Source: Escherichia coli
GTDB lineage: Bacteria; Pseudomonadota; Gammaproteobacteria; Enterobacterales; Enterobacteriaceae
Reading direction: 5' to 3' (one strand)
Assembly (NCBI RefSeq): GCF_003790525.1
Contig: NZ_CP033635.1
Length of the DNA: 64,000 nt
Part shown: positions 1 through 5,083 of the stretch, piece after piece
Position numbering within the stretch: the first letter of the stretch is position 1
How the letters are laid out: every line of letters starts with the position of its first letter
Notes under the pieces: model-generated
What the model was told of the DNA's origin: nothing
The model's input: the letters and a program-made list of their open reading frames with translations, nothing else
Databases searched by the model: none
Position numbers and translations under genes: made by a program

Positions 1-28
1 TATGACGACAGGGAGTGTTTGTAGAAAC

Positions 29-58
29 GCAAAAAGGCCCAGTCTTCCGACTGGGCCT
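29..58 (-). terminator. rho-independent terminator downstream of 5S rRNA
   Basis: Inverted repeat ggcccagtc / gactgggcc (36-57) with 4-nt loop, followed on the minus strand by a T-run; 14 nt past the 5S 3' end. Confidence 0.75.
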
Positions 59-71
59 TCTGCTTAATTTG

Positions 72-191
72 ATGCCTGGCAGTTCCCTACTCTCGCATGG
101 GGAGACCCCACACTACCATCGGCGCTACGGCGTTTCACTTCTGAGTTCGGCATGGGGTCAGGTGGGACCACCGCGCTAAGGCCGCCAGGCA
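72..191 (-). rRNA. rrfB: 5S ribosomal RNA
   Basis: 120 nt whose reverse complement matches E. coli 5S rRNA (tgcctggcggc...gggaactgccaggcat); operon assigned as rrnB because murI lies immediately upstream. Confidence 0.93.
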
Positions 192-283
192 AATTCTGTT
201 TCATCAGACCGCTTCTGCGTTCTGATTTAATCTGTATCAGGCTGAAAATCTTCTCTCTTCCGCCAAAACATCTTCGGCGTTGT

Positions 284-3187
<2,904 letters not shown>

Positions 3188-3380
3188 TCACAACCCGAAG
3201 ATGTTTCTTTCGATTCGTCATCGTGTTGCGAAAATTTGAGAGACTCACGAACAACTTTCGTTGTTCAGTGTTTCAATTTTCAGCTTGATCCAGATTTTTA
3301 AAGAGCAAATATCTCAAACGTCACCCGAAGATGAGTTTTGAGATATTAAGGCAGGTGACTTTCACTCACAAACCAGCAAG

Positions 3381-3456
3381 TGGCGTCCCCTAGGGGATTC
3401 GAACCCCTGTTACCGCCGTGAAAGGGCGGTGTCCTGGGCCTCTAGACGAAGGGGAC
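3381..3456 (-). tRNA. gltT: tRNA-Glu in the 16S-23S spacer
   Basis: 76 nt; reverse complement is gtccccttcgtctagaggcccaggacaccgccctttcacggcggtaacaggggttcgaatcccctaggggacgcca, with CCA end. Confidence 0.93.
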
Positions 3457-3541
3457 GTATCAGTCTGCTTCGCAAGACGCCTTGCTTTTCACTTTCTATC
3501 AGACAATCTGTGTGAGCACTTCAAAGAACGCTTCTTTAAGG

Positions 3542-5083
<1,542 letters not shown>

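Follow-up and report, generated by a model that had tools for sequence, protein, structure and literature searches.

The stretch of Escherichia coli DNA analysed here (the window, 64,000 nucleotides at its full length) begins at the end of a ribosomal RNA operon. The minus strand of positions 1-5083 carries a complete rRNA operon, recognised with Rfam and ARAGORN, which comprises the 16S gene (3542-5083, Rfam), a tRNA-Glu gene (3381-3456, ARAGORN), the 23S gene (284-3187, Rfam) and, as its last member, a 5S rRNA gene (72..191). The presence of trmA-btuB-murI upstream and of murB downstream (the latter seen in the genome of strain SMS-3-5) places the operon at the rrnB locus; the 5S gene is rrfB and the remainder of the rrnB transcription unit covers 284..5083 of the same strand. 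The rrfB assignment is based on an Rfam RF00001 match at 74-189 (93 bits) and on the rrf gene at the same place in SMS-3-5; its ends were set at the boundaries of the 120-nt rrfB of K-12 (TGCCTGGCGGC...CAGGCAT), which makes position 72 the mature 5S 3' end (...CAGGCAT) on the minus strand. Between the tRNA-Glu and 23S genes there is also an Rfam match to StyR-44 (120 bits; 3195-3303, minus strand), an element usual in enterobacterial rrn operons. Over its whole length the window matches SMS-3-5, as well as many other complete genomes, with 100% identity; the context beyond the window edge was taken from SMS-3-5, and the rrfB-murB region of K-12 served as the comparison.

Read along the rrn strand, the 5S gene is followed by a 3' trailer, CAAATTAAGCAGAA (58..71, minus strand). 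This is a generic rrn trailer: the same sequence precedes T2 in K-12, and near-identical trailers follow rrfC and rrfH of K-12 and the 5S genes of rrnA and rrnE in SMS-3-5. In K-12, the 9S RNA is cut by RNase E in its AU-rich trailer, and the hairpin forms the 3' end of the 9S/5S precursor; by analogy, positions 58..71 are presumed to be where RNase E processes the 3' side of the 9S precursor. The terminator hairpin (36..57, minus strand), as defined by the sequence, its minimum free energy (MFE) fold and its stem pairing, starts 14 nt past the 5S 3' end and consists of a perfect 9-bp stem, GGCCCAGTC (57-49) with GACTGGGCC (44-36), closed by a GGAA tetraloop (48-45). Directly 3' of the stem there is a T5 (U) tract (31..35, minus strand), with the same tail as K-12 rrnB T2, which is the expected region of transcript release. 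Finally, positions 1..30 (minus strand), beginning GCGTTTCTACAAAC..., are the start of the rrnB-locus-specific intergenic DNA that, in the alignment of K-12 and SMS-3-5, continues into murB. A first-pass annotation of this DNA had put the end of the window 28 nt beyond the hairpin; the distance is actually 35 nt from the stem and 30 nt from the T5 tract.

The hairpin has the attributes of an intrinsic terminator. Seven of the nine pairs of its stem are G-C, and its MFE is -26.8 kcal/mol, versus -10.6 +/- 2.6 kcal/mol for dinucleotide shuffles (z = -6.3; 0 of 200 as stable). The TTTTT at 35-31 abuts the stem and lies inside a T-rich stretch, TTTTTGCGTTTC, that runs to about position 24. The element is in the rrn-strand orientation at the end of the transcription unit, with murB following 136 nt past the annotated 5S end in SMS-3-5 versus 300 nt in K-12. 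Across 12 homologous T1-type hairpins 99% of the stem cells are paired, and there is one compensatory pair: one stem pair is A-U in most of them, G.U in O157:H7 and G-C in E. albertii, where both sides have changed, and another varies among U.G, C-G and U-A. This covariation is consistent with selection for the helix and is suggestive only, being statistically weak in the 12 hairpins (41-75 of 500 shuffles reach the observed values).

A consensus terminator scan of window positions 1-400 called no terminator at the hairpin. Applied to K-12 (L002:230-700), the same scanner found T1 and missed the established T2 despite the flanks that T2 shares with the window, and we consequently do not accept the miss as evidence against a terminator. 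It is likely an artefact of the scanning rule, in which the U tract is drawn into a greedy stem with the A-rich left flank, so that too few T remain. Users of such tools should be aware that this scanner misses T2-type rrn terminators, as it does both K-12 T2 and the window hairpin.

The first-pass annotation had described the element as a T1/T2 hybrid, a T1-like stem-loop between T2-like flanks, and had proposed an alignment with the rrfB-T1-T2 region of K-12 and with the ends of the other rrn operons. When this alignment was done base by base, both resemblances proved to be exact or nearly so. The two flanks reproduce the context of T2 in K-12 rrnB without a mismatch, the core of 14 nt, CAGTCGGAAGACTG, is that of T1 in K-12 rrnA and rrnD and is a single loop base away from that of rrnB T1 (GGAA versus GAAA), and one 165-nt block of K-12 is absent from the SMS-3-5 form. 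The mosaic appearance is therefore genuine in K-12 terms, and imperfect recall of the reference, the annotation's own second explanation, does not account for it. What is present is a single hairpin rather than a tandem of the K-12 type, the 165-nt module being absent. Positions 1..30 match the K-12 "T2 context" because they are rrnB-locus-specific DNA leading to murB.

In K-12, the rrnA, rrnB and rrnD operons end in T1, a spacer and T2, and the last 18 nt of this spacer are a copy of the end of the 5S gene with its trailer (AACTGCCAGGCATCAAAT). The rrnG operon has a T2-type hairpin directly after its 5S gene, rrnE has its own hairpin after 5S, and rrnC and rrnH run on into tRNA genes. The T1 and T2 of K-12 rrnB are established terminators with classic descriptions, and the rrnG terminator has a classic description as well. 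The sequence after every K-12 5S gene was read, and at no K-12 operon does the window's terminator occur; it looked unfamiliar because it is absent from all of them.

The comparison with individual terminators can be made precise. With K-12 rrnB T2 the window hairpin has in common its left flank, CATCAAATTAAGCAGAAGGCC, and its right flank, GGCCTTTTTGCGTTTCTACAAAC, both without a difference, together with the outer GGCC/GGCC stem pairs, the U tract and the distance that separates it from murB. In contrast, the core of K-12 T2 is ATCC-TGAC-GGAT (8-bp stem; predicted -22.7 kcal/mol) and that of the window CAGTC-GGAA-GACTG (9-bp stem), and the window hairpin follows a real 5S gene, whereas K-12 T2 follows the 18-nt 5S-end remnant of the T1-T2 spacer. 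With T1 of K-12 rrnB, rrnA and rrnD the window hairpin shares the stem-loop core and the place directly after the 5S gene. However, T1 has a U.G pair (GGCT...) at a place where the window has C-G, and the window's stem is perfect because of this C in place of the T of K-12 T1. The T1 flanks AAATAAAACGAAA / TTTCGTTTTAT, which the window does not have, lengthen the T1 helix to 20 bp (predicted -32.7 kcal/mol), and T1, unlike the window hairpin, is followed by a spacer and T2; in predicted stability the window hairpin ranks between the two K-12 terminators. The single 5S-proximal terminators of K-12 rrnG, of SMS-3-5 rrnA and rrnE and of O104:H4 rrnE, as well as those of the murB-locus rrn operons of Citrobacter, Kosakonia, Enterobacter and Klebsiella, resemble the window in their entire layout (5S, a trailer of ~14 nt, one GC-rich hairpin and TTTTTGC); they differ from it in that most have an ATCC-NNNN-GGAT core and in a downstream flank that is specific to each locus.

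One of these cases is particularly informative. In the O104:H4 strain 2009EL-2050, the rrnE operon (which adjoins yjaB) ends in the identical 47 nt of trailer, hairpin and TTTTTGCG; counted from inside the 5S gene, its sequence equals that of the window up to and including TTTTTGCG and is unrelated immediately beyond, and the rrnB operon of the same strain has the long form. The same trailer and hairpin are thus found at different rrn operons with divergence only past the terminator, as concerted evolution would have it. The first-pass annotation had conceded that its hybrid would be refuted if the element were the standard terminator of another rrn operon with nothing missing, and the rrnE of O104:H4 effectively supplies that operon. 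About 815 genomes carry the hairpin only at another operon of the rrnE kind. In SMS-3-5, both rrnA and rrnE have single terminators directly after 5S, with T2-type cores.

These other operon ends have peculiarities of their own. The SMS-3-5 operon at the rrnA position (L097:12577-17587, hemG..mobB) has a tRNA-Glu spacer, whereas the K-12 rrnA spacer is of the Ile/Ala type, and its single T2-type terminator lies 102 nt before mobB versus 269 nt in K-12; these features suggest an exchange of whole operons or of large tracts between rrn loci. Downstream of rrnE in SMS-3-5 (L095:12789-14493), an IS3-family transposase splits a yjaB-like acetyltransferase gene, and yjaA, which follows rrfE in K-12, is missing there in both SMS-3-5 and O104:H4.

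The relative frequencies of the forms were estimated in 5,426 complete E. coli genomes. A query that cannot seed on K-12 T1 or T2 found the window-type hairpin with the rrnB-specific flank in 2,126 of them (about 40%), and the K-12 long form at rrnB, counted at >=80% coverage of a spacer + T2 + murB query, was found in 2,522 (about 46%). Subtraction leaves at most 778 genomes, which include those with 5S followed by a pure T2. The latter class could only be bounded in this way, since the 5S part of its 91-nt query seeded alone and, in long-form genomes, joined pieces bridged the spacer; nonetheless, single-piece 100% matches to this 5S + pure-T2 query do exist, for example in E. coli B. Of 40 evenly spread matches to the 58-nt terminator, 39 lie directly against an annotated 5S gene. 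In SMS-3-5, O157:H7 7409, S8, 23CRST044 and EcPF5, a single hairpin stands between the 5S gene and murB, with minor variants specific to the lineages. A derivative of E. coli B has 5S and a pure T2 whose flanks are 100% identical to K-12, and its difference from SMS-3-5 is confined to the core (12 versus 14 nt) within the same flanks. The short allele with the T1 core is found in lineages that we take to belong to phylogroups B2, E and F (ST131/83972, O157:H7 and SMS-3-5), and the long allele in what are presumably A/B1 strains (K-12 and O104:H4). A full-text literature search found papers that use or mention rrnB T1/T2, and none among them that describes natural variation of the rrnB terminator region.

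The same locus was then compared in other species by a scan with MurB, in which one genome stood for each GTDB species. It returned 80 murB loci, 44 of them with the true 5S end on the contig; E. fergusonii and Salmonella are absent from this set, and the close outgroups available for polarity are few. No second copy of the 5S end follows the 5S gene at 42 of the 44 informative loci, and the tandem module is present at 2; a few further murB loci are tandem as judged from the 5S-end remnant. Of the 42 cores, 37 are T2-type or other and 5 are T1-type; one of these five, in Enterobacter JUb54, has a second hairpin ~60 nt further on, without a second 5S-end copy. Three Escherichia lineages other than E. 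coli have a single terminator at the murB locus; its core is T1-type in E. whittamii and T2-type in Escherichia sp. E1V33 and in strain E69. In E. albertii, the core that adjoins the murB flank is T1-type, on a contig that begins inside the trailer, where short and long forms are indistinguishable. The exact 22-nt hairpin of the window, with TTTTTGCG, is also present at the murB locus of Citrobacter amalonaticus ku-bf3 and of Kosakonia oryzendophytica. Relatives and outgroups thus mostly have no tandem at this locus, and a short form derived by deletion is not the state that this distribution displays. In Escherichia sp. MOD1-EC7003 (L013:1-421), unrelated coding-looking sequence replaces the 5S gene and terminator immediately upstream of a conserved murB leader; the rrnB end may have been rearranged there or have received an insertion.

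Taken together, these observations make it very probable that the element is the intrinsic (Rho-independent) terminator of rrnB, in a single-terminator allele common in E. coli outside the K-12-like lineages. It is an ordinary and widespread allele of a known kind, with nothing broken or unusual about it. By homology to K-12 T1 and T2, transcripts should end at the hairpin. RNA polymerase would transcribe 16S-tRNA(Glu)-23S-5S, the nascent RNA would fold into the 9-bp GC-rich GGAA hairpin 14 nt past the 5S 3' end, and the U5 tract would then let the transcript go before murB; presumably the hairpin would also become the 3' end of the 5S precursor. The hybrid appearance can be accounted for in the same terms. 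The right-hand "T2 context" is unique murB-proximal DNA, which K-12 also has after its T2, and the left-hand one is the generic trailer that most 5S genes have behind them. The core is one of two interchangeable types, CAGTC-GRAA-GACTG or ATCC-NNNN-GGAT, that would circulate among rrn ends by gene conversion; strains, operons and genera differ in which of the two they carry within the same flanks. The rrn operon through its terminator is a dispersed repeat and the identity of rrnB and rrnE stops after TTTTTGCG, so that gene conversion is the natural mechanism; it would have moved both the cores and the T1-spacer module between operon ends.

With regard to polarity, the single-terminator layout is most likely ancestral at the rrnB locus, and the K-12 layout (T1, a spacer with the 18-nt 5S-end copy, and T2) is most likely a derived insertion that came from operon ends of the rrnA/rrnD type. 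The distribution of the alleles fits a single gain of the long form in the A/B1 lineage, with phylogroups that are presumed for these strains rather than taken from a computed tree. The short pure-T2 allele of E. coli B may be older than this gain or else the product of a secondary deletion; a deletion between the 18-nt repeats is mechanistically easy, and some short alleles, that of E. coli B for instance, may have originated in this manner. On balance, and with some reserve, we favor the general proposition that the T1-T2 tandem of K-12 is a lineage-restricted derived module that spreads by gene conversion, and that a single terminator with a cassette-swapped core is the ancestral arrangement, still widespread in E. 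coli and the Enterobacteriaceae. If this is true, natural strains would differ in how tightly the very strongly transcribed rrnB is insulated from murB-birA.

A more specific history, tentative and with somewhat less than an even chance of being correct, would have the short layout as ancestral and its T1-type core as secondary: gene conversion from another rrn operon (e.g., of the rrnE type) would have overwritten an end with a T2 core, in a tract ending in the GGCCTTTTTGCG microhomology. The confinement of the difference between E. coli B and SMS-3-5 to a 12- or 14-nt core in identical flanks argues for such a replacement, as do the 47 nt at O104:H4 rrnE that diverge exactly after TTTTTGCG and the predominance of T2-type over T1-type cores (37 versus 5) when the murB locus is compared across genera. 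However, the T1-type core is present in E. whittamii too, as well as in a murB-proximal position in E. albertii, and it may be old within Escherichia. This scenario is a refinement of the single-terminator explanation and not an alternative to it, and both its donor/recipient pair and its direction are putative.

The origin that the first-pass annotation had itself proposed, a deletion between T1 and T2 in this strain, fares much worse, and the hybrid reading survives only as a description of the resemblance and not of its cause. According to this proposal, T1 and T2 recombined in an ancestor with the K-12-like T1-spacer-T2, with the loss of 165 nt and a chimeric hairpin as the product. It is exactly the T1-to-T2 interval that is missing relative to K-12, and the product has both T1-like and T2-like parts; the T1 and T2 regions are imperfect direct repeats, both starting AACTGCCAGGCATCAAAT, and would be a plausible substrate for recombination. 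But T1 lies upstream of T2, and a single crossover predicts a T1-type left flank (CATCAAATAAAACGAAAGGCT); the left flank observed is T2-type at all five positions diagnostic of T1 and T2, so a simple crossover between T1 and T2 is disfavored. Patchy mismatch repair of the heteroduplex could in principle yield a T2/T1/T2 mosaic. Nonetheless, the clean product of deletion between the 18-nt repeats is 5S with a pure T2, which is the separate allele of E. coli B. Moreover, the window allele is carried by 2,126 genomes and is also found at rrnE, and single terminators are the usual state elsewhere: the tandem module is missing from other Escherichia lineages and from 42 of the 44 informative loci, from the rrnA and rrnE of SMS-3-5 itself, and from the murB locus of Citrobacter and Kosakonia with the identical hairpin. 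We consider the deletion improbable. An artefact, in which collapsed rrn 3' repeats gave a false short junction during assembly or sequencing, can be dismissed as having a negligible probability, even though rrn operons are repeats of the kind that typically collapse and most draft contigs break at rrn 3' ends, since the same junction is present in >2,000 complete genomes that were finished independently, in many laboratories and on many platforms, and carries lineage-specific point variants (O157:H7, S8, EcPF5).

The single-terminator allele as such has little biological weight, as it is an intrinsic terminator of the standard sort and thousands of public genomes have it. The mildly notable point concerns K-12: fewer than half of the complete E. 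coli genomes have its tandem at rrnB, and the tandem probably represents the derived state; the K-12 T1-T2 arrangement is therefore not the norm of the species, and the "missing" T1-T2 interval is not a lesion. The natural series of a T1-type core, a T2-type core and the tandem in otherwise identical flanks offers a ready set for the comparison of terminator strength and of read-through into murB-birA, and is of potential interest to those who use rrnB terminators as genetic parts. The T1-T2 spacer of K-12 (L002:405-575), common to rrnA, rrnB and rrnD, gave only a sub-threshold Rfam match, to RtT (17 bits, E = 1); a degenerate 5S and an RtT-like repeat are candidates for its origin.
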